Assembly: GCA_963768855.1 (NCBI GenBank)
Contig: CAVYJM010000006.1
Span: 736,001 to 800,000 of the forward strand
Length of the DNA: 64,000 nt
Origin: an uncultured Thermoplasmata archaeon
GTDB lineage: Archaea > Thermoplasmatota > Thermoplasmata > RBG-16-68-12
Direction: 5' to 3'
Shown here one piece after another: positions 1 through 13,174 of the stretch (the stretch's first letter is position 1; each line of letters starts with the position of its first letter). The position numbers were made by a program, and so were the translations under genes. The notes under the pieces were generated by a model. That model made no database searches. It was not told where the DNA came from and worked only from the letters and a program-made list of their open reading frames with translations.

Positions 1-2
1 CG

Positions 3-1001
3 GGGTGCGGCGTCCGCTTTGCCTCCGAGGAGGAGGCTGGACTGGCTGCCGCGGAGCCTTCCCCCCCGCAGGAACGTCCTCCTCCTGCATCCGTGTCTCC
101 AGCCGCGCCCGCCGCGTCGGCCTCCCCAGCGGCTCCCAGGCCGCCTGACACCGTGAGGCTGGGGCTGGGCCCCAAGGTGGAAGGCCTCCGTGACGAGGTC
201 CGCAGCGAGCGTCGGGACATCCCGTACGGAGATCGCAAGCTCATCGCGCGAGAGTTGCCGCGGCTCGTCAACGAGGTCAAGCCTCTTCTGGTCAGCGCGA
301 AGCGGATCGGAGTCGGCATCGATGGCGGGAAGCGGCTCATCAACAGCGCCGTCGAGGCCGGGAAGCGCAAGGAGATGGAGAAGGCGGTCCGCCTGATCTC
401 GGATGCCCGCCACTCCCTCGATGTCGCGTTCGTCGACTTCGTCGGCAGCCGCCTGGTCGCGCTCGCCTCGGAGGTGGAGGCGGCCGGCCCCGGCGACGCC
501 GCGAATCTCGCTCGCCCCCAGCTCGAAGACGCTTTCGCCCGACTGAAGGATCGCGAGTACGACGCCGCATGGGACGCCCTCCAGGCCGCGAAGACTACGT
601 TCCAGTCCCAGGCCCGTGAGTACACGGAGGGACGCAAGATCCTGGAAGCGACCGAGCGGCTGCTCGGCGAGGTGCGGAGCCTCGGGATGGATTCGAAGGA
701 GGTCGAACGCCTGGTGCGGCAAAGCCGCGAGGCCGGCGAACGCCGCGATCTGCCCGGGTCCCTGCGACTCGCACGCCAGGCCCAGGAGCGCCTGCTCCAG
801 GCGGTGCCCGAGTTCGTGCAGGTCGAGATGCGCAATGCACGGGACCGCCTCTTGGACGTGAAGGTGCGGGGCGGAGATCTGTCCAAACCCGTCGGGATCC
901 TCAAGGAGGCCAGCGCGCACGTGAAGAACGAGGAGTGGAGCGAGGCCATCCGGTTCCTGAAGGAGTTCGAGAAGGAGATCTCCCGTCTGCCGAAAGCCTG
1001 A
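3..1001 (+). CDS. Hypothetical coiled-coil protein, 5'-partial (frame open from the window edge)
   Basis: The frame of ORF 93..1001 is open back to position 3 (GCGVRFASEEE..., possibly the end of a Zn ribbon). A Pro/Ala linker is followed by helical heptad-rich sequence. Confidence 0.7.
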   Translation, partial: GCGVRFASEEEAGLAAAEPSPPQERPPPASVSPAAPAASASPAAPRPPDTVRLGLGPKVEGLRDEVRSERRDIPYGDRKLIARELPRLVNEVKPLLVSAKRIGVGIDGGKRLINSAVEAGKRKEMEKAVRLISDARHSLDVAFVDFVGSRLVALASEVEAAGPGDAANLARPQLEDAFARLKDREYDAAWDALQAAKTTFQSQAREYTEGRKILEATERLLGEVRSLGMDSKEVERLVRQSREAGERRDLPGSLRLARQAQERLLQAVPEFVQVEMRNARDRLLDVKVRGGDLSKPVGILKEASAHVKNEEWSEAIRFLKEFEKEISRLPKA

Positions 1002-1013
1002 CCGACCTGGCGG

Positions 1014-3125
1014 TCAACCGGCGCGGACGACTTCCATCTCCCGCTCGAGCATCCGGAGTTCCTGCTCCTTCACCGTCGCGGGTCCCAAGGAGATCAGGAA
1101 GATGTGGTGGCCCTCGGAGACCGTGTCGACGAGTCTCCGGACGAACTTGAGGACCGCGTCGAAGGAGTTGTTCGAAACGAGGTACTCGACGCCGTCCAGC
1201 ATGATCGAGCCCTGCGGCCGCTTCGACATGAAGCCTTCGATCTCGTAGACGATTCGCTCGAGCGCGGGGGCGATTGTCTCCTCCTTGCTCCCCTCGCGGT
1301 CCGTGAGCCAGAGGACGCGGACGGCATCGAGCGAGAAGGATTCCCGGACCCGTTTGGGGTTCGTTCGGGTGATGAGCAAGCCGCCCTTGGCTCCGTCGAC
1401 CGCCTTCGCGAAGAGCCGGTACGCCTGCTCCGGACGGTCCTCCTCGACTAGGTAGCTCCGTCCCGCCCGCAGGTCCTTCGGAACGCCGGACGGGGGAGCG
1501 GTCCTCGTCTCCTTCGTCGGCTCCACGACTTCCTGCCGCAGAACTTCCTTCGCGAGGTCCGCGGTGATCGGGCGCTCCATGAGCGACGAGAAGGCCACAA
1601 CGCGGTTCAGCGCGCCACCGAGCTCGCGAACGTTGTCCTCGACGAGGTTTGCGATGTACCGGAGGACGTCGGTGTCGACCGTCAGATGCGCGTCCTCCGC
1701 GCGCTGTCGCAGGATCTGAATTCGGGTGTCGAGTTCGGGTGCCTGGATGTTGGCGAGGAGGCCGGATTCGAACCGGGAGACGAGGCGGTCGTCGAGCTGC
1801 GTGATGGCCTTGGGAGGCCGGTCACAGGCGAAGACCAATTGTTTCCCGCCGTTCGAGAGCTCATCGAATATCCGCAGGACTTCCTCTTGGAGGTCGCCCT
1901 TCCCGCTGAGGAACTGCAGGTCGTCGAGAAGGAGGCAGTCAAGCGATCGGACGCGTTCGTGGAAGCCCCCCGATCCGCGGACGCCCCGCGACGCCTCGAG
2001 ATGGCCGGCGAGCGCCTCGCACGTGAGATACAGGACCTGCGACCCGGGACGGTGGGCGCGCAGGTAGTTGCCGACGGCGTTGAGGAGATGGGTCTTCCCG
2101 AGCCCGGGGCCCGACGTCACGACGAGGGGGTTGTATGCGCCGCCCGGTTGCTTCCCCGCGGCGATCGCGGCGCCGTAGGCGAAGCGGTTGCTCTCCCCCA
2201 CGATGAAGGCGTCGAAGGTGTACTGCTCGATGAGCTCGGTGGCCTGGTCGCGCGTCGGCGTGGGACCCTCGAGGACCTTGGCGACCTCTTCCCTCGACGG
2301 GGTGGGGATGTCGGACCGCATCGCTCCGCGTTGACGGAGCACGAGTTCGAGCACTTTCTTCGTCCGCTCCTGCGAGTCACGCTCCCTGGTGACCTCGATG
2401 CGGCGCCGCTCCTCGATTCGCTTGTAGCTCTCCACCGCATCCCGGAGGCTCTCGACCTCCGAGTCGATGTCCGGGTTGCGGAGTGGATCCCTCAGCTTCT
2501 GATGGAGGGCGGCCGCCCGCGCCTCGAATCCCCTGGTGTCGAGCCCTTTCAGCGTATCCTCGACGGCCTCCGCGCGGCGGATCGCCTCGAGCAGGGACAG
2601 ATAGGCTCCGGTGACCACGCCAGGATTCCCGTTGATCTGGTCCTGAACGGAGTTCACGACGAAGCCCCGCGTCCTCCACTCCGCGAGCTTGGCCTCAATC
2701 TCGGCCCGGTCGATTACCTGGGGCACTTTCGGCTTCTTGATCACCTTCGCCGGCCGCTCGAGGATCGCGTCCGCGTACTCCGCAATCAGGCCGTCCATGT
2801 CGATGCGAGCGTGGAGCTCGATGGTCGCCTCATCGACGTAGGAGTCTTGCCACACCCGCTTGAGTGCAGCTCGGCCTCGCTCCTGATCCTCCCCGCGCTG
2901 GTGGAGGCTCGCCTCGGGGCTTCCGGCGCGGAGCAGGACGATCCCCTCCGAGCGCACTCCGTCGCGCGTCAGGACGATTCGCACGTAGCCCGAGAAGGAG
3001 TACTTCTTGAGGTCGAGCAGGAGCTGTTTGAGGGCGCTGGCTCCGCCTCGCGTGGTGCGGATGAGTTTTCCTTCTGGGAGAAGAAGGTCCTGCGGCGTAG
3101 GACTTCCTCGAGACTCCCGAGCCAT
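1014..3125 (-). CDS. DnaA-like AAA+ ATPase fused to an N-terminal DUF2226-like region and a C-terminal DUF835 (inactive KaiC-like) domain; no DnaA domain IV
   Basis: YTFDAFIVGESNRFAY, Walker A GPGLGKTHLL, Walker B LLLDDLQFL, ACDRPP, RLVSRFESGL and sensor II NVRELGGALNR match DnaA domain III. C-terminal GLLITRTNP...VLWLT...IMLDGVEYLVSNNSF is DUF835-like. Confidence 0.8.
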   Translation of the reverse strand: MARESRGSPTPQDLLLPEGKLIRTTRGGASALKQLLLDLKKYSFSGYVRIVLTRDGVRSEGIVLLRAGSPEASLHQRGEDQERGRAALKRVWQDSYVDEATIELHARIDMDGLIAEYADAILERPAKVIKKPKVPQVIDRAEIEAKLAEWRTRGFVVNSVQDQINGNPGVVTGAYLSLLEAIRRAEAVEDTLKGLDTRGFEARAAALHQKLRDPLRNPDIDSEVESLRDAVESYKRIEERRRIEVTRERDSQERTKKVLELVLRQRGAMRSDIPTPSREEVAKVLEGPTPTRDQATELIEQYTFDAFIVGESNRFAYGAAIAAGKQPGGAYNPLVVTSGPGLGKTHLLNAVGNYLRAHRPGSQVLYLTCEALAGHLEASRGVRGSGGFHERVRSLDCLLLDDLQFLSGKGDLQEEVLRIFDELSNGGKQLVFACDRPPKAITQLDDRLVSRFESGLLANIQAPELDTRIQILRQRAEDAHLTVDTDVLRYIANLVEDNVRELGGALNRVVAFSSLMERPITADLAKEVLRQEVVEPTKETRTAPPSGVPKDLRAGRSYLVEEDRPEQAYRLFAKAVDGAKGGLLITRTNPKRVRESFSLDAVRVLWLTDREGSKEETIAPALERIVYEIEGFMSKRPQGSIMLDGVEYLVSNNSFDAVLKFVRRLVDTVSEGHHIFLISLGPATVKEQELRMLEREMEVVRAG

Positions 3126-3329
3126 CCCGAAGCCCCTCTAAATAGGTTGCAACGTAGTTACGAATGCTGAGAACACCCTCGGTTTCCGCTCCAGTGCGCC
3201 CGCATGTTCACGACCCGCAAAGGAGGCAGAGGCGGGCGTTGCCGGCGAAGTGTTTTCCCTCTTGACCGGAGCGCTCAGTAACGTCCTAAGCAAAACTCTA
3301 TTATCTTCTTGGATTTTGCCGCGATTGCC

Positions 3330-4577
3330 ATGGCCCGGGCTTTCTTCACGATGGATGATTTTGACCTCTCGGGTCGCACGGTGCTCCTCCGGGTCGACAT
3401 CAACTCGCCGATCGATCCGGCGACCAAGACGCTGCTCAACGACGCGCGCCTCCGCGAGCACCTCTCCACCATCCGCGACCTCCGGGGCTCAAAGGTCGTC
3501 GTACTTGCGCACCAGTCCCGTCCGGGAAAGGATGACTTCACGTCCCTCGCGCCGCACGCGGAGCGCCTCTCCAGCCTGCTCGGCCGCCCTGTTAAGTTCG
3601 TGGATGGCCTGTACAACCGGGAGGCCCTCGACGCCATCCGCGGCCTCGAGACGGGGGACGTCCTCGTCCTGGAGAACGTTCGGTTCTTCGCCGAGGAGGA
3701 CGCCCTCGCCGACTCAAAGATCGAGAAGATGGCCAAGACGCACATCGTCCGGAAGCTCGCACCGCTCGCGCAGTACTTCGTCCTCGACGCGTTCGCCGCC
3801 GCCCACCGGGCCCAGCCGAGCCTCGTCGGCTTCGTGGACGTGCTGCCGACCCTCGCGGGCCGCGTCATGGAGAAGGAGCTCACGATGCTCGATCGCGCGA
3901 TTCACAGCCAGGACCGCCCCAAGATCGCGATCTTCGGGGGCGTGAAGGCGGACGACAGCATCGCCGTTTCGAAACACATGCTCGAGAAGGGCGTCGTCGA
4001 CAAGGTGCTGACGACCGGCGGCGTCGCGAACATGTTCCTCCAGGCGGACGGAAAGGACCCCGGCCCCCTCACGACGGAGTTCATGAAGAAGGAGATCGAG
4101 GAGTACGACACATACGTCGGCCAGTGCAAGGAGCTCCTCGCGAAGTACCGGGACCGGATCCTCATGCCGACGGACGTCGTCCTGAACGACGGGGGCCAGC
4201 GGAGGCCCGCCCTCGTGAAGGAGCTGCCTTCCGCCCTGCAGGTCTACGATATCGGCCTCGACACGCTCGCGCGGTACATCGAGGAGATCCGCGCGGCGAA
4301 GACGGTCTTCTTCAACGGCCCCGCCGGCGTGTTCGAGAAGGACGAGTTCGCCGTCGGAACGCGGGAGCTCCTCCAGGCCATCGCGGAATCGGATGCCTTT
4401 TCGGTCGTCGGCGGAGGACACACGGTCGCCGCGGTGGAGCAGTACGGTCTCGAGGACGCGATGGGCCACGTGAGCACGGGCGGAGGCGCGCTGATCAACT
4501 ACCTGGCGGGCAAGGAGCTCCCCCTCGTCACGGCCCTGGAGCGATCCTACAAGAAGTTCTCCCAGAAGAAAGCGTAG
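3330..4577 (+). CDS. pgk: Phosphoglycerate kinase
   Basis: LLRVDINSP, VLAHQSRPG, LENVRFFAEE, DAFAAAHR, FFNGPAGVFE, VGGGHT and HVSTGGGA motifs. Start taken at ATG 3330. Confidence 0.95.
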   Translation: MARAFFTMDDFDLSGRTVLLRVDINSPIDPATKTLLNDARLREHLSTIRDLRGSKVVVLAHQSRPGKDDFTSLAPHAERLSSLLGRPVKFVDGLYNREALDAIRGLETGDVLVLENVRFFAEEDALADSKIEKMAKTHIVRKLAPLAQYFVLDAFAAAHRAQPSLVGFVDVLPTLAGRVMEKELTMLDRAIHSQDRPKIAIFGGVKADDSIAVSKHMLEKGVVDKVLTTGGVANMFLQADGKDPGPLTTEFMKKEIEEYDTYVGQCKELLAKYRDRILMPTDVVLNDGGQRRPALVKELPSALQVYDIGLDTLARYIEEIRAAKTVFFNGPAGVFEKDEFAVGTRELLQAIAESDAFSVVGGGHTVAAVEQYGLEDAMGHVSTGGGALINYLAGKELPLVTALERSYKKFSQKKA

Positions 4578-4610
4578 GCCGCGGCACAGGGTTCAAGTAT
4601 CCGGCGGAGG

Positions 4611-5984
4611 GTGGCTCCGCCGATGCGGTTCGGGGGTCTGAGGAAGCCTCAGGACTGGGGCGTCGAGCCGGTGCCTCCGGAGAAGCGCAACCTCCGCACG
4701 ATCGATCTCGGGGTCCTCTGGTTCAACCTGGGCGTCGGGCTCCTCGTCCTCTATGCGGGGACGTTCATCACGGGCTACGGGTTCGGGCTCATTCCCCTGC
4801 TCGGGATCGTCTTTGCGGGGTCCGTGCTCGGAAGCGTCTTCCTCGCGGGCGCCGGGACGATTGGCACACGCCACGGCGTGCCGACGATGGTCAGCCTCCG
4901 GCCAATCTTCGGGCGGCGCGGATCGTTCGCGCCCACCGCGCTCAACGCGGCCCAGCTCTTCGGCTGGACCGCGCTGGAAATCTGGGTCATGTCCGTGGCG
5001 GCGAACGCCTTGTCGGGCCCGTTCCTCGGAACCTTCACGGGCGTCTTCTGGGTCGTCCTGTTCGGCGCGTTCTGCGGGTTCCTCGCCTGGGGCGGACCCA
5101 TGGTGGTCGTCAAGGACTGGCTCGAGCGGATTGGCCTGTGGCTCGTCCTGGCGGGGGCCGGATGGATCACGTTCCGGCTCGTGACGGCCCCGGGCGTGGC
5201 CGCGTCGCTCCCCCTCTGGGGCGGCGACTGGACCAAGGCGGGTCTCGGGCTGGACCTGGTCATCGCGATGCCGATCTCGTGGTGGCCTCTCGTCGCGGAC
5301 TACAACCGGTTCGCGGAGTCGAACCGCAAGGCGTTCCTCGGCACGACGATCGGGTATGTCACGGCGAACACCTGGTTCTACCTCCTCGGAGCCGTCATGT
5401 TCCTGGTGCTTGGCCTTTCGAACGCGAGCGATGTCTTCGCAGCCGCCATCGTCGGCGTGTACGGGGCGCTTGCCCTGGTGGCCATCCTCGCAGACGAGAC
5501 GGACAACGGCTTCGCGAACATCTACTCGACGAGCGTCTCGCTCCAGAACATCCGGCCGAAGGCCACGCTCCGCCGCCTCGTGCCAATCGTGACCACCGCC
5601 GGACTCGCGGTCGCGGCGCTCCTGACGGCCCTGCCCCAGGCGAGCGTCCTCGTGTACCAGCCGTTCCTCTACTTCATCGGCGGCGTGTTCGTCCCGATGC
5701 TCGGCGTCGTCCTTGCGGACGTCTACGTGGTGCGTCGGTCCGGCTACGCGCCCGAGGAGTTCCGCGACGGCGGGAAACGTTCCTCCGTACCCGCCTTCAT
5801 GGCGTGGATCCTCGGCATGGCCACGTACTTCCCGATCTACCTCGTGAACTCGCAGTACGTCTCGCTCGACCTGGGAGGGCTCAATCTCCTGGGTGCCAGC
5901 GTGCCCTCGTTCGCGCTCTCGGCGGGGGTATACATCGCCGCGACGAGGCTCCTCGCCCCGGCCGATGAGCGCGCTCCCGCGTGA
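4611..5984 (+). CDS. NCS1-family (purine-cytosine permease / CytX-like) transporter
   Basis: About 12 hydrophobic segments; GTRHGVPTMVSLRPIFG, MPISWWPLVADYNRF and NIYSTSVSLQN motifs typical of NCS1. Confidence 0.85.
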   Translation: MAPPMRFGGLRKPQDWGVEPVPPEKRNLRTIDLGVLWFNLGVGLLVLYAGTFITGYGFGLIPLLGIVFAGSVLGSVFLAGAGTIGTRHGVPTMVSLRPIFGRRGSFAPTALNAAQLFGWTALEIWVMSVAANALSGPFLGTFTGVFWVVLFGAFCGFLAWGGPMVVVKDWLERIGLWLVLAGAGWITFRLVTAPGVAASLPLWGGDWTKAGLGLDLVIAMPISWWPLVADYNRFAESNRKAFLGTTIGYVTANTWFYLLGAVMFLVLGLSNASDVFAAAIVGVYGALALVAILADETDNGFANIYSTSVSLQNIRPKATLRRLVPIVTTAGLAVAALLTALPQASVLVYQPFLYFIGGVFVPMLGVVLADVYVVRRSGYAPEEFRDGGKRSSVPAFMAWILGMATYFPIYLVNSQYVSLDLGGLNLLGASVPSFALSAGVYIAATRLLAPADERAPA

Positions 5985-6082
5985 CCGGGTCGCTCGATAT
6001 CCAGCCGTAGGCCGTAGCTCCGATCAGGTTGCCGCATAAATGGAAGGTGGGAGCGGTGCGATCCGCCCCCTTGGATTTCCGT

Positions 6083-7450
6083 TCAGCTCTGGTAGCCCAC
6101 GATGACCTGGGGCAGCGGGAACGTCCCGCCGTTCTGCTGGAACGTGGCGAGCGTATCATCCGTGTAGACGACCGCGGCCTTCCCGTTCGCGTTGATGGAG
6201 ATCTCGAACAGGTCCAGCAAGGTCCTCGTGAGGAGCGGGTTCACGCAGCCCGTCCCGCTCGTGCAGATCACGCCGACGTGGTTCGCGTGGTCGGAGACGA
6301 CCGACTGGGAGAAGTGCACGCCGTCCGTGGACTGGCTCATGTAGGTGTTCCAGACCGCGCTCGGGTCGTCCTTGCTCGAAGCTGTCGTCCCGTAGTACGC
6401 GACGTCAATCAGGCCGTTGCGCGCCGCGATGGCGGGGAAGACGGCCGTGGCCGCGTTGCCCGTGTTCACGACGACCGCGGTCGACCAGGTGGTTCCGTGG
6501 TCCGCGCTCATGGAGACGGAGACGCCATGTGCATCCGACCAGGTCGCGAACAGGTTGCCGTTGCTCGGGTCCACCGCGAGCATGGGGAAGACGTTGTTCA
6601 GCGCCGTGAAGAGCGGCGCGTGGTACACGAGGCTCGCCTTCCACGTCCTCCCGAAGTCCGTGCTGCGGGAGACGAAGATGTTGTTGAAGTTCGCGCTCGT
6701 CCCCTTCTGGATCCCGGGCTGGCCCGCCGCGTAGACGGCGAAGACGTCGTGGGTCGTCGGGTCGGCCACGAGCTGTCCCTGGTCGTTGTTGAACGTCGCA
6801 TCGGCGGTCGTCCCATCCTGACCCACGACGGGGTTGCCGACCTTCACCCAGGTGAATCCATCGTCCATCGATCGTTGCACGTGGATGAGCGTGCTCGAGC
6901 CGCTGTCGTGGTAGGAGATGTAGACGACCGGTCCGTCCGACGTGATCCACTGGCGATCCGCCTGCGTCGTGTCGATGAGCTTCGCGGTGCACCCCGTGAA
7001 GTCGGACGCGGACGCGAAGTGTGGACATGCGATGGCGGACACGCCTAGCTGGGCCGCGTTCATCGTCGGGTTGAAGATGAACATGAGCGTGGACGCGTGG
7101 AGCGTGCCCGTGGACCCGAAGTCCAGGTCCTCGTCACCGCCGCCGATTCCGGTCCCGATGTGCGCGTCAATGGGTCCGATGGCGGCCGGCGCCGTCCCGA
7201 AGGAACCCTTCCAGACGTCCGTCTGGAACTGGAACCAGTCGAGTCCGCCGAGGACCACGGTGCCATCCGGGCCGATCGTGACCGCGGGCTCGCTGCCGCC
7301 CATGCCGGGCGAATCGGGTTGCAGCAGGAAATTCGAGAAAGTCACGGTCGTCGAGGGGGGCTTCGCGTAGGCTCCGGTTCCGAAACCGACCGCGGCGACC
7401 ACCGAGCCGACCAACGCCAAGCTCACGAACAGGGCGAGTGCGATACGCAT
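6083..7450 (-). CDS. Secreted BNR/Asp-box beta-propeller protein (sialidase-like fold)
   Basis: Signal peptide MRIALALFVSLALVGSVVAAVG after a GGAGG SD; Asp-box repeats SMDDGFTW, STDFGRTW, SADHGTTW. Confidence 0.8.
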   Translation of the reverse strand: MRIALALFVSLALVGSVVAAVGFGTGAYAKPPSTTVTFSNFLLQPDSPGMGGSEPAVTIGPDGTVVLGGLDWFQFQTDVWKGSFGTAPAAIGPIDAHIGTGIGGGDEDLDFGSTGTLHASTLMFIFNPTMNAAQLGVSAIACPHFASASDFTGCTAKLIDTTQADRQWITSDGPVVYISYHDSGSSTLIHVQRSMDDGFTWVKVGNPVVGQDGTTADATFNNDQGQLVADPTTHDVFAVYAAGQPGIQKGTSANFNNIFVSRSTDFGRTWKASLVYHAPLFTALNNVFPMLAVDPSNGNLFATWSDAHGVSVSMSADHGTTWSTAVVVNTGNAATAVFPAIAARNGLIDVAYYGTTASSKDDPSAVWNTYMSQSTDGVHFSQSVVSDHANHVGVICTSGTGCVNPLLTRTLLDLFEISINANGKAAVVYTDDTLATFQQNGGTFPLPQVIVGYQS

Positions 7451-8689: not shown

Positions 8690-9817
8690 GTGCCCCGCGT
8701 CTCCGGTTGGTACTACGACGGCCGCGGATTCAAGGCGGGGACGGTCGGATGGGAGGACGGCGTCATCGTGGAGGCCCGCTCCGGCCGCGTGCGGGACGCA
8801 CTCGCCGAAGGCCTCGTGATCCCTGGCCTTTGGAACGCACACACCCACCTCGGAGACGCGGTCGTGACCCAGGAGCTACGGGGAACGATCGAGGACCTCG
8901 TGGCCCCTCCGGACGGCCTGAAGCACCGGGTACTCGCCAAGGCGACGGACGAGGCGGTCATCGCGGCGATGCGCCGCGCGATGGCCACCATGCTCCGCAC
9001 CGGAACGACAGGGTTCTCGGACTTCCGCGAGGGGGGTCTCCGTGGGCTGAAGCAGCTCTACGCGGCCCTCGTCGTCCTCCCGCTGGAAGGCGTCACCCTC
9101 GGACGTCCGGTCGGCCTGAGATACGATCCACGCGAGGTCTCCGCGCTGATCCGTGCCAGTGACGGCATCGCGGTGAGCTCCTACATCGACTGGCCCGCCG
9201 CTGATCTCGCGAAGATCGCGGCCGACGTGAGGCGGGCGAAGAAGGTCTTCGCCATCCATTGCTCCGAACGGGTCCGGGAGGACATCGATGCCGTGCTGGA
9301 CCTCAAGCCGTCGTTCCTGGTCCACATGATCCAGGCGACCGATCCGGACCTGGAACGGGTCGCAGACTCGGGCGTGCCGATCGTGGTCTGCCCGCGATCC
9401 AACGCCTTCTTCGGTCTCACGCCGGACATCCCCCGGATGCTCGCCGCGGGGGTCGAGCTCCGCCTCGGGACCGATAACGCGATGATCAACGTGCCGTCCG
9501 TCTTGCGCGAGATGGACTTCGCCTATCGCGTCGCCCGAATGAAGGGCGGGATTCCCGCCCGCGAGGTCTTCGAGATGGCCCTGCGCGGCCGTCGCCTGAA
9601 AGATCCGAAGGCCGCGTGTGCGATCCGTGTGGGCGAACCTGCCGACCTCCTTGTGCTCGACCTTCCCGGGGGCGCGGACGGGTTCGCCTCGGTCCTGCGC
9701 GCGTCCGCGAGCGACGTCCGGCTCGTCGTGTCCCGCGGACGCATCTGGGACGTTTCGCCATCCGCCCGCTCGACCCACGCCACGCGCCCTCCGCGGAATC
9801 GGAAATCCGCAACGTGA
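8690..9817 (+). CDS. Metal-dependent amidohydrolase (cytosine/5'-deoxyadenosine deaminase-like)
   Basis: NAHTHLGD, IHCSE, LVHM, VVCPRSN and GTDN metal-binding motifs; TTTAAA box about 25 nt upstream of the GTG. Confidence 0.85.
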   Translation: MPRVSGWYYDGRGFKAGTVGWEDGVIVEARSGRVRDALAEGLVIPGLWNAHTHLGDAVVTQELRGTIEDLVAPPDGLKHRVLAKATDEAVIAAMRRAMATMLRTGTTGFSDFREGGLRGLKQLYAALVVLPLEGVTLGRPVGLRYDPREVSALIRASDGIAVSSYIDWPAADLAKIAADVRRAKKVFAIHCSERVREDIDAVLDLKPSFLVHMIQATDPDLERVADSGVPIVVCPRSNAFFGLTPDIPRMLAAGVELRLGTDNAMINVPSVLREMDFAYRVARMKGGIPAREVFEMALRGRRLKDPKAACAIRVGEPADLLVLDLPGGADGFASVLRASASDVRLVVSRGRIWDVSPSARSTHATRPPRNRKSAT

Positions 9818-9878
9818 TCGTTCGCCCGGCACCGCGCGACCCCATCCTTTATGACAATCCCTCCCTTTCCCGGCCGGG

Positions 9879-11369
9879 ATGGCCTCTTACGAGGACCTCA
9901 TGTCCCTCTCCGTCCGCCGCGGGTTCCTGTGGCCCGCGGTCGATCTGTACGGAGGATTCGCCGGATTCTACGATTACGGCCACAACGGCGCCCTGCTGCG
10001 GAGGCACTGGGAGGACGCGTGGCTCGAGCACTTCCTCGGCCTGAACGACAACTACTACCTCATCGACACGACGACGATCCTGCCACACGCCGCCCTCAAG
10101 GCATCGGGACACGTGGACCACTTCACGGACCTCCTCGTCACCTGCACCCGCTGCGGGGAATCCTACCGCGCGGACCATTTGCTCGAGGCGGCGACCCACG
10201 AGGAGCACGAGGGCATCACCGCGGCCGAGACGGATGCGAAGATCAAGGCCGTCGGCGTGCGCTGCCCGAACTGTAAGGGGGAGCTGGGACCCTCCCGCCC
10301 GTTCAACATGATGTTCCCCCTCGGCGTGGGCCCGACCGGCCAGGACTCCGCCTTCCTGCGACCCGAGACGGCCCAGGGCGCCTTCCTCAACTTCAAGCGG
10401 GAGTTCGAGGCCCTCCGGCGCAAGCTGCCCATGGGGCTCGCGATCGTCGGCCGCGCGTACCGGAACGAGATCAGCCCGCGGCAGGGGACGTATCGGATGC
10501 GGGAGTTCCTCCAGGCCGAGCTGCAGATCTTCTTCGATCCCGCGACGTTCGCGGACCAGGTGCCGTACTCCGAAGTGGCCGACGTCGCCGTGCGGCTCTG
10601 CTGGGCCGCGGAGAAGAACCAGCCGATCGCGCACGAGCTCGCCGCGAAGGACCTCGTGGCCCGCGGCCTCCCCTCGTGGTACGTGTACCACATGGCGAAG
10701 GTCCAACAGTTCTACATGGACGTGCTCCAGATCCCGCGGGAGCGTTTCCGGTTCGCGGAGCTCGATGAGAAGGAACGCGCGTTCTACAACAAGATCCACT
10801 TCGATGTCCAGGTGAACCAGGACAGCCTCGGCGGGTTCAAGGAGGTCGGGGGCGTCCACTACCGCACGGACCACGACCTGACGGGCCACGAGGCCGGCTC
10901 CCACCAGAAACAGGCCGTGACCGTCGGGACGAACCGGGTCGTCCCCCATGTCCTCGAGCTCTCCTTCGGCGTCGACCGCAACGTCTGGGCGCTCCTCGAT
11001 CTCGGGTATCGACCCGGGGAGCGCGCGGTCCTCCGGGTCCCGCCTCGGCTCGCGCCGATCACCATGGCCGTCTTCCCTCTCGTGAACAAAGACGGTCTGC
11101 CCGAGCGCGCCGAGGCCATTTATCGACGGACCCGGAAGCAGATCACCGCGTTCTACGACGACGCGGGATCGATTGGGAAGCGCTATGCCCGGATGGACGA
11201 GATCGGGACGGCGTTCTGCGTGACCGTGGACCACGAGACCTTGGAGGGGAAAGGGGTGACGCTCCGGGACCGGGACTCGCAGAAGCAGGTCCGGGTCGCG
11301 GACGCGGATCTCGTCTCGCACCTCGAACGCCTGCTGTCCGGTGAGGCGCACTTCGGCGACCCGGCGTGA
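9879..11369 (+). CDS. glyS: Glycyl-tRNA synthetase (archaeal/eukaryotic alpha2 type)
   Basis: GFYDYGHNG, SGHVDHF, FLRPETAQG, YRNEISPRQG, EFLQAELQIF, PHVLELSFGVDR and the anticodon domain SIGKRYARMDEIGT. Confidence 0.95.
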   Translation: MASYEDLMSLSVRRGFLWPAVDLYGGFAGFYDYGHNGALLRRHWEDAWLEHFLGLNDNYYLIDTTTILPHAALKASGHVDHFTDLLVTCTRCGESYRADHLLEAATHEEHEGITAAETDAKIKAVGVRCPNCKGELGPSRPFNMMFPLGVGPTGQDSAFLRPETAQGAFLNFKREFEALRRKLPMGLAIVGRAYRNEISPRQGTYRMREFLQAELQIFFDPATFADQVPYSEVADVAVRLCWAAEKNQPIAHELAAKDLVARGLPSWYVYHMAKVQQFYMDVLQIPRERFRFAELDEKERAFYNKIHFDVQVNQDSLGGFKEVGGVHYRTDHDLTGHEAGSHQKQAVTVGTNRVVPHVLELSFGVDRNVWALLDLGYRPGERAVLRVPPRLAPITMAVFPLVNKDGLPERAEAIYRRTRKQITAFYDDAGSIGKRYARMDEIGTAFCVTVDHETLEGKGVTLRDRDSQKQVRVADADLVSHLERLLSGEAHFGDPA

Positions 11370-11373
11370 CCGC

Positions 11374-12036
11374 ATGCGCGCCGACGGCCTCACGTCCCGT
11401 GCGCTCGTCCGGCTGGATGCGGAGATTGCGCGGACGGTCGCGAGCCGGGATCGGATCGTCCTCGCCTTCTCGGGCGGCCTGGGCAGCCTGCTCGTTGCTG
11501 CGCTCGCCCGAAAACGGTGCGACCTGCATTGCGTCGTGGTCGGGAGCCGTACCTCGGCCGATGTGGGGGCCGCGCTCGTGGCCCAGAAGTTCCTCGACTA
11601 CCCGGTGACCGTCCTGAGCCCGAGCGCCGAACGAGCGCGGACCGTCGGGAGACGGATCCGCTCGGCCGACCCGCTCCTCCCTCTCGAGGAAGTCCTCGCC
11701 CTCGTCCCCCTGGAGTTCGTGGAGGAGCGTCATCCTCTCGAGCCGGTCGTCTCCGGGTTTGGGCTGACGGCACGGACCCCATCCCTTCGCAGGGCGCTCG
11801 AGTCCAAGGCCGGTCGCTGCCCCGGGCTCCGACTGCAGGTCTCGCACTCGACGCGGGTCCCGCTGACCCGGATGGCGGAGGCCACAGGCCTTCCGGTCTC
11901 GTTCATCCGGGCGGCCCCCCGGAGCCCTCTGGAGGGATCCGGCCTAGGTCCTGCCCTGCGTGAGCTGGCGCGCTCTCGGAGGGTCTCGCTCGACCGCCTC
12001 CTCTCCGTCGATAGTCCGTTGCGTGAGAATCAATAA
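11374..12036 (+). CDS. Asparagine-synthase C-terminal-like adenine nucleotide alpha-hydrolase protein (no glutaminase domain)
   Basis: IVLAFSGGLGSLLVAALA resembles the SGGLDS PP-loop but with D to G; follows glyS directly. Confidence 0.6.
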   Translation: MRADGLTSRALVRLDAEIARTVASRDRIVLAFSGGLGSLLVAALARKRCDLHCVVVGSRTSADVGAALVAQKFLDYPVTVLSPSAERARTVGRRIRSADPLLPLEEVLALVPLEFVEERHPLEPVVSGFGLTARTPSLRRALESKAGRCPGLRLQVSHSTRVPLTRMAEATGLPVSFIRAAPRSPLEGSGLGPALRELARSRRVSLDRLLSVDSPLRENQ

Positions 12037-12084
12037 CGCCCGGGCCGGCACGTCATTCCCGAATCATCGGCTGTTGACTAACAG

Positions 12085-12093
12085 TTATAAATA
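12085..12093 (+). promoter_or_regulatory. TATA box of the longin-like membrane protein gene
   Basis: TTATAAATA in a GC-rich background, preceded by a CTGTT-N4-AACAG inverted repeat at 12071..12084. Confidence 0.65.
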
Positions 12094-12160
12094 GCTCGCG
12101 CGCGAATCATTACGTTCGCCGTCGTCCGCTCCTTCTGGAGCACAAGTTGGGGGGCATCCA

Positions 12161-13174
12161 CTGACCGAACGTGCACGGGCGCGCACCGCGAGGAGTCTCC
12201 TCGCGCTTCTCGCCATCAGCTTCACGGCGGTCCTCGTGCTCAGCCTTTCGCTGCCCGCTTCTGCGTCCCAGCCACGCTCGAACTACGCGCTCACGGTCCT
12301 GATCAACGACTCGCGATCCCCGAAGCTCGGCATCATCCTCGAGATGGATCAGATCACCGGGGACTCCTCGTTCACCTACTGGGCGGAGAACATGACGGCG
12401 AACGTGACCCTCGGCCCTGAGCTCTCCTGGACCGAGGACGGGGCCGCTCTCGGATCCACGATGCAGTTCCAGAACAACGTGAGCGGGATGACGTACTTCA
12501 ACTTCACCGCGTACATCGCGCCCGGCACGCGCGCGAACATGACCGCCGAGCCGAATGAGACCGTGTTCGCCTCGTTCACCACGACGATGGTCTACACCGA
12601 CAACCTCGGAGCGAACCCGCGCACCATCCAGCGTTCCGTTTCCTTCGCGTTGAACTACATCCCGCCGGCTCCTCCGCCCGTCGTCGCCCTCTTACCGGCC
12701 GCCCTCCTAGGCGTGGGCGGCGCCAGCGGGATCGGCGCGATCCTCTACGTTCGCCGACGCGCGCGGCTCGATGAGCTGTACTTGATGCATGACAGCGGGA
12801 TGCTCATCCGCCACTGGTCCCGCGCGCAGGGCAACCCGCACGACAGCGACATCATGAGCGGGATGCTCATCGTCCTCCAGGAGTTCGTCCGGGACACGTG
12901 GAAGACCCACGGAGACGAGGACGCGCCGCTCCAGCAGCTCCGGTTCGGACCCGAGCGGGTCCTGCTCGCGCGAGGTTCGCACACGGTCCTAGCGGCCGTC
13001 GTGCACGGGCGGTACCTGAACGGGCTCCCCACGAGGCTCGCGAGCGCGGTTCAGGAGTTCGAGCGCTCCAACGCGGAACGGCTCGTCGACTGGAATGGAA
13101 ACGTTGACGTGTTTCCGAAAGTGGACCTAATCGCCCAGCAATTCCTCGGGACCCATTCCCGCCCCGCCGCATGA
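12161..13174 (+). CDS. Single-pass membrane protein: signal peptide, extracellular domain, TM helix and cytoplasmic longin/roadblock-like domain
   Basis: C-terminal DELYLMHDSGMLIRHW...DIMSGMLIVLQEFVRDTW...WNGNV pattern; TM ALLPAALLGVGGASGIGAILYV. A full signal peptide needs a start at CTG 12161; GTG 12236 truncates it. Confidence 0.7.
   Translation: MTERARARTARSLLALLAISFTAVLVLSLSLPASASQPRSNYALTVLINDSRSPKLGIILEMDQITGDSSFTYWAENMTANVTLGPELSWTEDGAALGSTMQFQNNVSGMTYFNFTAYIAPGTRANMTAEPNETVFASFTTTMVYTDNLGANPRTIQRSVSFALNYIPPAPPPVVALLPAALLGVGGASGIGAILYVRRRARLDELYLMHDSGMLIRHWSRAQGNPHDSDIMSGMLIVLQEFVRDTWKTHGDEDAPLQQLRFGPERVLLARGSHTVLAAVVHGRYLNGLPTRLASAVQEFERSNAERLVDWNGNVDVFPKVDLIAQQFLGTHSRPAA

Follow-up and report, generated by a model that had tools for sequence, protein, structure and literature searches.

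DnaA is the textbook initiator of bacterial replication, whereas archaea start replication with Orc1/Cdc6. What, then, does the ATPase core of DnaA do in an uncultured wetland Thermoplasmata archaeon, where it is embedded in a fusion protein of 703 amino acids? We know of no activity of the DnaA ATPase domain outside replication control. The original prediction held that the protein is not an initiator but an ATP-switched scaffold or sensor built from a transferred dnaA. We analysed the gene within the window, that is, the whole stretch of 64,000 nucleotides, and among its relatives. The following features bear on the argument.

1014–3125, minus strand: whole open reading frame, 703 codons plus stop, frame open and intact
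2751–3086, minus strand: N-terminal alpha/beta domain, residues 14–125, kept in distant fusions
2256–2708, minus strand: helical spacer, residues 140–290, from AF2 secondary structure
1530–2240, minus strand: DnaA domain III (AAA+ IIIa and lid IIIb), residues 296–532, from Pfam, NCBIfam, PDB and Foldseek
2091–2111, minus strand: Walker A GPGLGKT, residues 339–345; K344 in 120/120 orthologues
1947–2021, minus strand: helices of the initiator-specific motif (ISM), residues 369–393, present in the model, with base-capture residues replaced
1920–1934, minus strand: Walker B LLLDD, residues 398–402; D401 in 120/120 and D402 in 116/120 orthologues
1773–1787, minus strand: Box VII RLVSR, with R447 (112/120) and the arginine finger R451 (115/120)
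1626–1628, minus strand: sensor II arginine R500, equivalent to E. coli R334; 120/120 orthologues
1470–1535, minus strand: flexible linker, residues 531–552, at the position of the hinge to domain IV in DnaA
1026–1463, minus strand: DUF835 (PF05763), residues 555–700, alpha/beta domain without a P-loop
1–1001, plus strand: 3' two thirds of a zinc-ribbon/helical neighbour (Pfam DZR plus a helical domain)
3309–4577, plus strand: phosphoglycerate kinase gene (pgk), divergent neighbour, syntenic in 11/14 loci; context only

From the N-terminus to the C-terminus, the protein thus consists of a weakly DUF2226-like N-domain, a helical spacer, DnaA domain III and DUF835. This layout agrees with the predicted one, and both Bac_DnaA and DUF835 score above the Pfam cut-offs. 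The start methionine is the same across the aligned orthologues. Because the full architecture is common to more than 120 database clusters (56–87% identity), the fusion is far beyond chance.

The identity of the core is clear. Bac_DnaA (PF00308) matches residues 300–457 with an E-value of 1.4e-48 (165.6 bits against a cut-off of 23), followed by a weak Pfam match to Hda_lid at residues 467–529. The domain finds B. subtilis DnaA in the PDB (8btg, E 1.4e-66), and its model superimposes on 8bv3 with a TM score of 0.95 and an rmsd of 1.1 Å at 48% identity (Foldseek); identity to genuine DnaAs is 44–48%, with B. subtilis DnaA at about 48%. The two Walker motifs, D435, R447 and R451 (the equivalents of E. 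coli R281 and R285) and R500 all align to B. subtilis DnaA and, as noted above for the listed motifs, are nearly invariant among 120 orthologues, so that the intact ATPase motifs claimed at the outset, sensor I included, are indeed present. At the level of sequence, these comparisons identify the core as true DnaA domain III, equipped with the full apparatus for ATP binding, hydrolysis and arginine-finger action.

The same conclusion follows from the model scores and the phylogeny, which place the AAA+ domain with DnaA rather than with Hda or DnaC/IstB. The full-length DnaA model TIGR00362 scores 278.7 bits, under its cut-off of 343.9, with profile positions 66–343 of 437 matched. The Hda model (TIGR03420) reaches 91.4 bits against a cut-off of 194.8, and the IstB/DnaC models also stay below their cut-offs (PF01695, 20.9 against 24.1; NF038214, 33.2 against 200; DnaC, 11.5 against 357). 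In an AAA+ tree rooted on E. coli DnaC, both E. coli Hda and DnaC fall outside the DnaA clade of 101 rows (SH-aLRT 93). Within the tree, the archaeal DnaA-III sequences branch inside the bacterial DnaAs, along a weakly supported backbone; hence, the predicted origin of the core by transfer of dnaA is plausible although weakly resolved.

What the protein lacks is equally informative. In DnaA, domain I binds the helicase and other partners, and domain IV is a helix-turn-helix that reads DnaA boxes. Neither DnaA_N nor Bac_DnaA_C matches anywhere in the whole protein or in its C-terminal 164 amino acids scanned alone at E<=10; canonical DnaA matches do carry DnaA_N (PF11638). Bac_DnaA_C (PF08299) has no match anywhere in the 93.6%-complete genome, with 10 bacterial controls positive. 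Both outcomes named as fatal to the original prediction, a Bac_DnaA_C match and a grouping of the AAA+ domain away from DnaA, are thereby absent. As anticipated, DUF835 occupies the place of domain IV.

The ISM has been remodelled as well. In B. subtilis DnaA, the ISM residues N187, I190, I193, R202, K222 and E228 capture bases of the DnaA-trio DNA; the corresponding residues in the fusion are G, E, R, H, K and E. Across the family, a hydrophobic residue stands in the I190 column in 6 of 120 orthologues and in the I193 column in none, the latter being R or K in 97, whereas both are hydrophobic in 65/65 canonical DnaAs; N187 is kept in 5/120 orthologues compared to 58/65 canonical DnaAs. The K222 column is basic in just 59/120 orthologues, R202 is kept in 99/120, and E183 and E228 are also retained. 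Thus, compared to the known domain III structures (8BV3/8BTG; T. maritima 2Z4R; A. aeolicus 2HCB/3R8F), the AAA+ fold, the ISM helices and the lid are shared, but N187, I190 and I193 are replaced and domains I and IV are gone, along with DnaA boxes and a dnaN neighbour. Around the gene, we found no repeat cluster, AT-rich tract or dnaN that would mark an origin; its neighbours are pgk and the zinc-ribbon gene. Furthermore, the genome encodes two intact Orc1/Cdc6 proteins, both on contigs other than that of the fusion gene. These genes, the lack of domains I and IV and the altered base-capture residues all add support to the view that the protein is not an initiator. In these archaea, then, the DnaA ATPase domain is strongly conserved while its DNA-reading features are gone. 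That the fusion protein is a cytoplasmic, non-replicative AAA+ switch is a prediction to which we give about an even chance.

A precedent for non-initiator use of this module is Hda, which is likewise a DnaA-family AAA+ protein without a DNA-binding domain. Hda is a stand-alone RIDA regulator of about 230 amino acids that acts on DnaA together with the beta clamp; to our knowledge, neither DnaA nor the beta clamp is to be expected in this archaeon. In contrast to Hda, the fusion is a multi-domain protein, and its AAA+ domain differs in model score and tree position as described above.

The remaining modules are more difficult to place. The N-domain is modelled with a pLDDT of 87 and has no Pfam match at E<=10. 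The predicted likeness to DUF2226 has weak support from its homologues, 5 of 14 of which match PF09987 (best E 1.6e-4), but is not seen in the protein itself. Searches for a solved fold yielded no relative, with E>=0.04 in Foldseek and a best Z of 5.9 in VIA, below the noise level of that tool. The spacer, which in the AF2 model includes one helix of about 50 residues, matches no family in a Pfam scan and shows no similarity to the zinc-ribbon/helical neighbour protein. The linker varies in length and sequence among homologues, with a pLDDT below 50 over residues 531–548.

DUF835 itself is unambiguous (PF05763, residues 563–697, E 2.5e-28, 99 bits against 33.1, profile positions 3–136 of 136). 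The AF2 model has an alternating beta/alpha pattern, and the P-loop signature GxxxxGK[ST] is absent from residues 549–703. Comparisons with FlaH/ArlH yielded weak matches (E 0.088 and 0.029); against PDB sequences, the profile retrieved the one weak FlaH match (E 0.029) and otherwise designed-repeat noise, and an hhalign comparison of shallow alignments with the neighbouring KaiC-like family gave no signal (probability 0.2). Galperin et al. 2018 (PMC5847659) term DUF835 'iKaiC', for inactivated KaiC. These two matches and the literature hint weakly at kinship of DUF835 to KaiC/ArlH. That census catalogues REC-DUF835 and PAS-DUF835 as archaeal signalling proteins, and its accessible text does not list a combination of DnaA-III with DUF835. 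The fusion resembles such proteins in carrying an output-type DUF835 at the C-terminus of a modular protein, but its input is an initiator-clade AAA+ ATPase instead of a REC, PAS or transmembrane sensor.

The genomic context suggests partners. The zinc-ribbon/helical gene, which begins 438 nt before the window, is convergent with the fusion gene and adjoins it in 14/14 loci, one of them from another order; being convergent, the two genes are not co-transcribed. A 240-amino-acid single-domain KaiC-like ATPase (67–82% identity) lies near the fusion in 11/14 loci, and the usual super-locus also contains a coiled-coil-DZR gene, a giant CARDB-DZR surface protein and a FlaI-like T2SSE/T2SSF pilus-type locus. 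Family f52 (G327/G333) keeps just the zinc-ribbon neighbour beside the fusion; no KaiC or pilus genes were found there within about 18 kb. Given that the housekeeping gene pgk is equally syntenic, part of this synteny may mirror relatedness within one order. The locus is reminiscent of ArlH/FlaH with ArlI/FlaI, where a KaiC-superfamily domain likewise occurs near FlaI-like ATPases; ArlH binds the ArlI ATPase (PMC8978795), and KaiC-family ATPases are predicted regulators of archaeal type IV pili (PMC4858521). However, DUF835 lacks the P-loop, its FlaH match is weak, and the KaiC-like neighbour scores 30 bits against an ArlH cut-off of 215. No DnaA-type module has been described in these archaellum and type IV pilus systems; 'DnaA' occurs 0 times in PMC4858521.

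The DUF835 fusion belongs to a wider DnaA-III radiation that the original prediction had not seen. In the survey across Thermoplasmatota that the prediction called for, other lineages proved to have repeatedly and independently joined DnaA-III to DUF835, to zinc ribbons, to a membrane anchor, to a KaiC operon or to a FlaI-like ATPase, and never to domain IV. In one genome (G032), SP-FN3-TM-DnaA-III, a KaiC-like gene and a 7TM-DUF835 gene follow one another in a tight operon. Further architectures include HEAT-DnaA-III-DUF835-Zn ribbon, N-domain-DnaA-III-DZR and MshEN-DnaA-III, and DnaA-III and DUF835 also occur as split gene pairs. We also found a DnaA-III::FlaI-like fusion, which initially appeared to be strong Rosetta-stone evidence and was downgraded: it is a database singleton cluster, and its DnaA part is 60–67% identical to Clostridia DnaA, which points to a separate recent acquisition. 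It could even be an assembly chimera, though its GC content is uniform.

Considering these observations together, we propose that the protein works outside replication as a switch or scaffold that oligomerises with ATP, within a module of KaiC and zinc-ribbon proteins that is probably associated with the envelope; we consider this prediction evenly poised between right and wrong. Under this model, ATP binding would make the subunits assemble head to tail by way of R451, in the manner of DnaA filaments. The oligomer would cluster the N-domains and the flexibly tethered DUF835 domains into a multivalent platform for recruiting or gating partners. These would be the adjacent zinc-ribbon/helical protein and the single-domain KaiC-like ATPase close by; less certain candidates are the pilus ATPases of FlaI type and the CARDB surface protein, which has zinc-ribbon tails. 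ATP hydrolysis would then reset the assembly. Elsewhere in the phylum, the same idea might be realized where a membrane-anchored DnaA-III shares an operon with KaiC and 7TM-DUF835. The predicted ATP-switched scaffold or sensor would thereby be refined towards a module associated with KaiC, zinc-ribbon and pilus proteins. More tentatively, the DnaA ATPase core may have become domesticated in Thermoplasmatota as a general-purpose module that polymerises with ATP and serves membrane-associated machinery of the KaiC type. It would do so fused to, or in operons with, DUF835, double zinc ribbons, KaiC-like ATPases, membrane anchors and parts of FlaI/MshE-type pilus ATPases.

Could the gene simply be the decaying remnant of a dnaA acquired by transfer, without any function today? 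Two of the four domains of DnaA are missing, as might be expected of a relic, but the pattern of conservation refutes this explanation, which we regard as wholly improbable: the 703-codon frame is intact, the catalytic residues are invariant, the gene is single-copy in 40/41 relatives searched (43–86% identity) and present in 16/16 high-quality genomes, and the full architecture recurs in the many database clusters mentioned above. A far stronger competitor, although still an unlikely one in our estimate, is that the protein serves the archaeal KaiC signalling network as a generic adaptor, with no tie to pili or the envelope. DnaA-III would then sense the ATP/ADP (energy) state, and its oligomeric state would be read via DUF835 as a hub-docking output domain. 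The 13 DUF835 domains of the genome, on carriers as diverse as 7TM and other membrane sensors, TPR proteins and even isoleucyl-tRNA synthetase, fit such an adaptor, as do the REC- and PAS-DUF835 proteins catalogued in PMC5847659 and the retention of the zinc-ribbon neighbour alone in f52 genomes. The adaptor leaves unexplained the recurring membrane and pilus-type partners, namely the TM-anchored DnaA-III, MshEN, the FlaI-like fusion and the super-locus. It is essentially the version of the original prediction and overlaps heavily with the oligomerising switch that we favour; the chief difference is the downstream target.

Less probable again is a chromosome- or replication-linked factor: an AAA+ protein that resembles Hda or modulates Orc1, or else a nucleic-acid filament, with partner domains taking the place of domain IV in reaching DNA. 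The close similarity of domain III to genuine DnaAs and the retention of E183, R202 and E228 are compatible with such a role. In another genome (G094), a DnaA-III gene is followed by a SAP-DUF835 gene, whose SAP domain may bind DNA and which keeps a nucleic-acid role open, and DUF835 is elsewhere accompanied by zinc ribbons and HhH domains. In addition, an Orc1/Cdc6 paralogue is followed by a DUF835 gene 18–20 nt downstream in 30/30 genomes of the same order, forming an operon with it; as a general rule, this linkage was rejected, being found in 0/29 genomes outside the order. Weighing against a replication-linked role are the missing domains I and IV, the loss of N187 and of the hydrophobic base-separating residues, the erosion of K222, the low Hda score, the surroundings devoid of origin-like repeats and AT-rich tracts, and the location of the fusion gene on a contig that carries neither orc1 gene.

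If the oligomerising switch is borne out, an initiator-clade AAA+ filament former would be re-usable as a signalling or assembly switch, and DUF835/iKaiC domains would gain a first concrete partner; the broader domestication, if true, would give the DnaA engine its first role away from both replication and DNA, backed by a radiation of architectures. In the literature searched, we found no paper on the fusion family, none joining 'DUF835' with 'DnaA' and none relevant on DnaA in archaea. The proposed function, if true, would also be a warning against automatic annotation: the family is already in databases under the names DnaA/Hda or DUF835, and public records annotate these archaeal genes as 'chromosomal replication initiator protein DnaA'.

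The fusion is a single open frame of 703 codons on the minus strand (window 1014-3125) that comprises the following parts, given in fusion residues.

14-125: alpha/beta N-domain (AlphaFold2 model)
140-290: helical spacer (AlphaFold2 model)
300-457: Bac_DnaA (Pfam, E 1.4e-48, 165.6 bits)
300-530: AAA+ domain and lid (AlphaFold2 model)
555-703: DUF835 domain, beta/alpha alternating (AlphaFold2 model)
563-697: DUF835 (Pfam, E 2.5e-28, 99 bits)

A Pfam scan of the whole protein found neither DnaA_N nor Bac_DnaA_C, placed a sub-threshold Hda_lid match between Bac_DnaA and DUF835, and, when the C-terminal 164 residues were scanned alone at E<=10, recovered only DUF835 and a weak DUF7504. The original prediction that DUF835 takes the place of the DnaA-box-binding domain IV (Bac_DnaA_C) is thus borne out. 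The NCBIfam DnaA equivalog covers profile positions 66-343 of 437 with 278.7 bits, under its cut-off of 343.9; the Hda and IS21 helper models score 91.4 and 33.2 bits. The closest solved relatives are Bacillus subtilis DnaA (8btg, E 1.4e-66; 8bv3), followed by the DnaAs of T. maritima and A. aeolicus, with Hda structures ranking after these (E about 1e-7). The AlphaFold2 model, built from 30 homologues (mean pLDDT 80), contains an AAA+ part that superposes on domain III of B. subtilis DnaA (Foldseek; TM 0.95, rmsd 1.1 A, 48% identity) and is separated from DUF835 by a disordered stretch (531-548); given the pTM of 0.44, the relative placement of the modules is undefined. The predicted DUF2226-like N-terminus held up only in part: because the N-terminal 130 residues matched no Pfam family and DUF2226 (PF09987) was matched by five of 14 homologous N-domains (best E 1.6e-4), the label denotes a weak, remote resemblance. 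Modelled by itself, the N-domain reached a pLDDT of 87, and a search of this model against solved structures returned no convincing relative.

We aligned domain III (DnaA-III) of 120 close orthologues (the own clade), 23 other DUF835 fusions, 42 further sequences lacking domain IV and 65 canonical DnaAs with domain IV. In the cryo-EM structure of the B. subtilis origin-opening complex, the DnaA-trio bases are held by N187, I190, I193, R202, K222 and E228 (PMC10721633). Conservation in the own clade was as follows, pocket columns being in B. subtilis numbering.

Walker A K344: 120/120
Walker B D401: 120/120
D435: 120/120
R447: 112/120
Arginine finger R451: 115/120
Sensor II R500: 120/120
N187 column: N in 58/65 canonical DnaAs; N in 5/120 of the own clade
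I190 column: I/V in 65/65 canonical; hydrophobic in 6/120 (mostly E, A, T)
I193 column: I/L/V in 65/65 canonical; hydrophobic in 0/120, R/K in 97/120
K222 column: K/R in 64/65 canonical; K/R in 59/120 (M in 43)

E183, R202 and E228 are mostly retained. The anticipated DnaA-III core is therefore present, with Walker A and B, D435, the box VII arginines and the sensor II arginine all kept. Because the ATPase and oligomerisation residues are near-invariant and the I190, I193 and N187 columns are replaced, the alignment indicates that the ATPase engine and the subunit interface are under selection and that the base-capture pocket is remodelled in the own clade. The rebuilt pocket would argue against DnaA-like strand opening by the fusion; the groove of its initiator-specific motif (ISM) helices may accept another ligand.

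The genomic context likewise agrees with the prediction of a non-initiator. The assembly (2.87 Mb, 24 contigs, 93.6% complete) encodes two intact Orc1/Cdc6 proteins (contigs C17 and C9), one Bac_DnaA domain, 13 DUF835 domains and, as far as this assembly reaches, no Bac_DnaA_C; around the fusion gene, no origin-like repeats or AT-rich tract were seen. The organism can do without the fusion as a replication initiator. A third, seemingly degraded Orc1/Cdc6-like gene (G000:C15:87125-88238, minus strand) consists of three separate matches, one with an in-frame TGA. At G000:C9:37712-40248, minus strand (locus L036, 715-3251), two DUF835 genes lie downstream of an Orc1/Cdc6 paralogue, the nearer of them 18 nt away and encoding 195 aa. 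A TATTTA hexamer (minus-strand reading) lies at window 3139-3144, 14-19 nt upstream of the fusion ATG; the canonical archaeal TATA box for leaderless mRNA is farther from the ATG than this.

The full architecture is common to more than 120 database clusters (56-87% identity), variously named 'DnaA/Hda family protein', 'DUF835 domain-containing protein' and, by JGI, 'chromosomal replication initiator protein DnaA'. Of 41 relatives from this order, 40 carry a single copy (43-86% identity), the exception being a genome that is 53% complete, and DnaA-III matches occur in at least 43 of 301 Thermoplasmatota genomes. Full-length matches among named records are from Thermoplasmata or 'Methanobacteriota' MAGs, and near-identical DNA is present in wetland and freshwater-sediment metagenomes, no RNA run being among the matches listed. 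The next-ranked matches, bacterial DnaAs from many phyla with a domain III identity of 40-49%, point to no clear donor. In an IQ-TREE phylogeny of 110 rows (LG+G4, quick search) with E. coli DnaC as the root, all archaeal DnaA-III sequences, including the fusion, group with bacterial DnaA (SH-aLRT 93, 101 rows), with E. coli Hda outside; 33 of 35 DUF835 fusions fall into one unsupported group, and E. coli DnaA lies outside the group of archaeal and mostly Terrabacteria-type DnaAs. A FastTree phylogeny of 214 rows agrees in outline. Because the backbone is weak and the bacterial sample skewed to the best matches, the proposed transfer of a bacterial dnaA is best regarded as likely, number and age of transfers aside.

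We compared gene neighbourhoods at 14 loci from seven families and two orders.

Window 1-1001, start 438 nt before the window, convergent with the fusion: double-zinc-ribbon/helical gene, tail-to-tail with the fusion in 14/14 loci (spacing 2-25 nt)
Next genes in 11/14 loci:
KaiC-like ATPase, 240 aa, single-domain, intact Walker A (PF06745, E 8.8e-33; 67-82% identical between families)
Coiled-coil double-zinc-ribbon protein
CARDB surface protein, >1100 aa, with cytoplasmic zinc ribbons

In family f52, the zinc-ribbon neighbour is the only one retained. Farther out lies a pilus-type locus with the gene arrangement T2SSE-T2SSF-T2SSF-T2SSE, kept in six further genomes checked, one of them from the other order; its first ATPase best fits the FlaI model, with a score of 416 bits that does not reach the cut-off (550). 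The second, FlaI-like T2SSE, a single continuous frame in relatives, is broken here into two ORFs that overlap in different frames (C6:726998-728813, L003 4998-6813, about 7.2-9 kb before the window), reflecting either a frameshift or an assembly error. Because pgk on the opposite flank of the fusion is syntenic to the same degree, synteny alone is no proof of function.

Recombination of the same parts in other genomes is the stronger argument.

G032:C218 (L214) 3452-6954, minus strand: membrane-anchored DnaA-III operon
G094:C80 (L212) 9363-11796, minus strand: split DnaA-III / SAP-DUF835 pair
G021:C1 (L210) 9832-12294, plus strand: DnaA-III::FlaI-like fusion

The tight G032 operon (gaps of 12, -1 and 2 nt) encodes, in this order, DnaA-III preceded by a signal peptide, an FN3-like ectodomain and a TM helix, a KaiC-like ATPase and 7TM-DUF835, which places the DnaA ATPase core in a receptor-like setting; a related arrangement occurs in G041 (C154, L215). 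G166 encodes HEAT-DnaA-III-DUF835-zinc ribbon, and in G094 the gene for N-domain-DnaA-III-double zinc ribbon precedes one for a second protein carrying the N-domain and zinc ribbons; at a separate place, G094 holds the fusion in split form, with DnaA-III in a protein of 427 aa and SAP-DUF835 in the next one, of 273 aa, whose SAP domain may bind DNA. Metagenomes contribute a 1876-aa MshEN-DnaA-III-...-DnaA-III protein (about 1900 aa for the P0123/P0124 type) and many tandem proteins of about 650-700 aa with two DnaA-III copies (P0121-P0133), the second copies forming a divergent clade in the tree. The G021 gene, first in a T2SSF-T2SSF operon, is an 821-aa in-frame fusion in which the ATPase part is orthologous to the first pilus ATPase of the window genome (E 2e-177). 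This database singleton shares 60-67% identity with Clostridia DnaA in its DnaA part, retains the canonical ISM there and has a uniform GC content, which points to a separate, recent transfer or, less likely, a chimera. None of these recombined architectures (G032, G166, G094, metagenomic, G021) includes domain IV.

ATP-bound DnaA domain III assembles head-to-tail through the box VII arginine into a spiral, which is open because the ISM wedges adjacent protomers apart. Since the residues needed for DnaA assembly are all kept, ATP-dependent self-assembly of the fusion would be the most economical inference. With DUF835 on a flexible linker, and with the N-domain and the long helices, such an oligomer could act as a multivalent platform that recruits or gates partners. 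We therefore propose an ATP-controlled assembly switch that acts on KaiC-family and zinc-ribbon partners and probably works at the envelope. The proposal draws on the kept assembly residues, on DUF835, which a census of signalling proteins in archaea lists as an inactivated KaiC-like domain (PMC5847659), and on links of KaiC to pili: KaiC-family ATPases have been predicted to regulate archaeal type IV pili (PMC4858521), and KaiC-like ArlH binds or releases the ArlI ATPase according to its own phosphorylation state (PMC8978795). What is observed here is the domain content, the motif pattern, the conservation and the associations between genes and between domains; that the protein oligomerises, which partners it has and which way control runs is what we infer.

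An adaptor of a KaiC hub that works independently of pili would differ from the assembly switch mainly in its target, and we consider it a rather unlikely alternative. A replication or nucleic-acid role appears improbable: it draws on the SAP-DUF835 partner in G094 and on the orc1-DUF835 pair, which is order-wide (30 of 30 relatives) but occurs at none of 29 orc1 loci from other Thermoplasmatota families. Conservation rules out a dead relic.

The nearest paralogue of the fusion DUF835 (40% identity) lies in the same genome outside the window (G000:C7:82788-86936, minus strand, L123), in a 1383-aa isoleucyl-tRNA synthetase (tRNA-synt_1, Anticodon_1, DUF5915) whose C-terminal part holds HhH, a double zinc ribbon and DUF835. 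Other Thermoplasmatota genomes contain open frames (1349-1450 aa) that likewise close with a similar DUF835.
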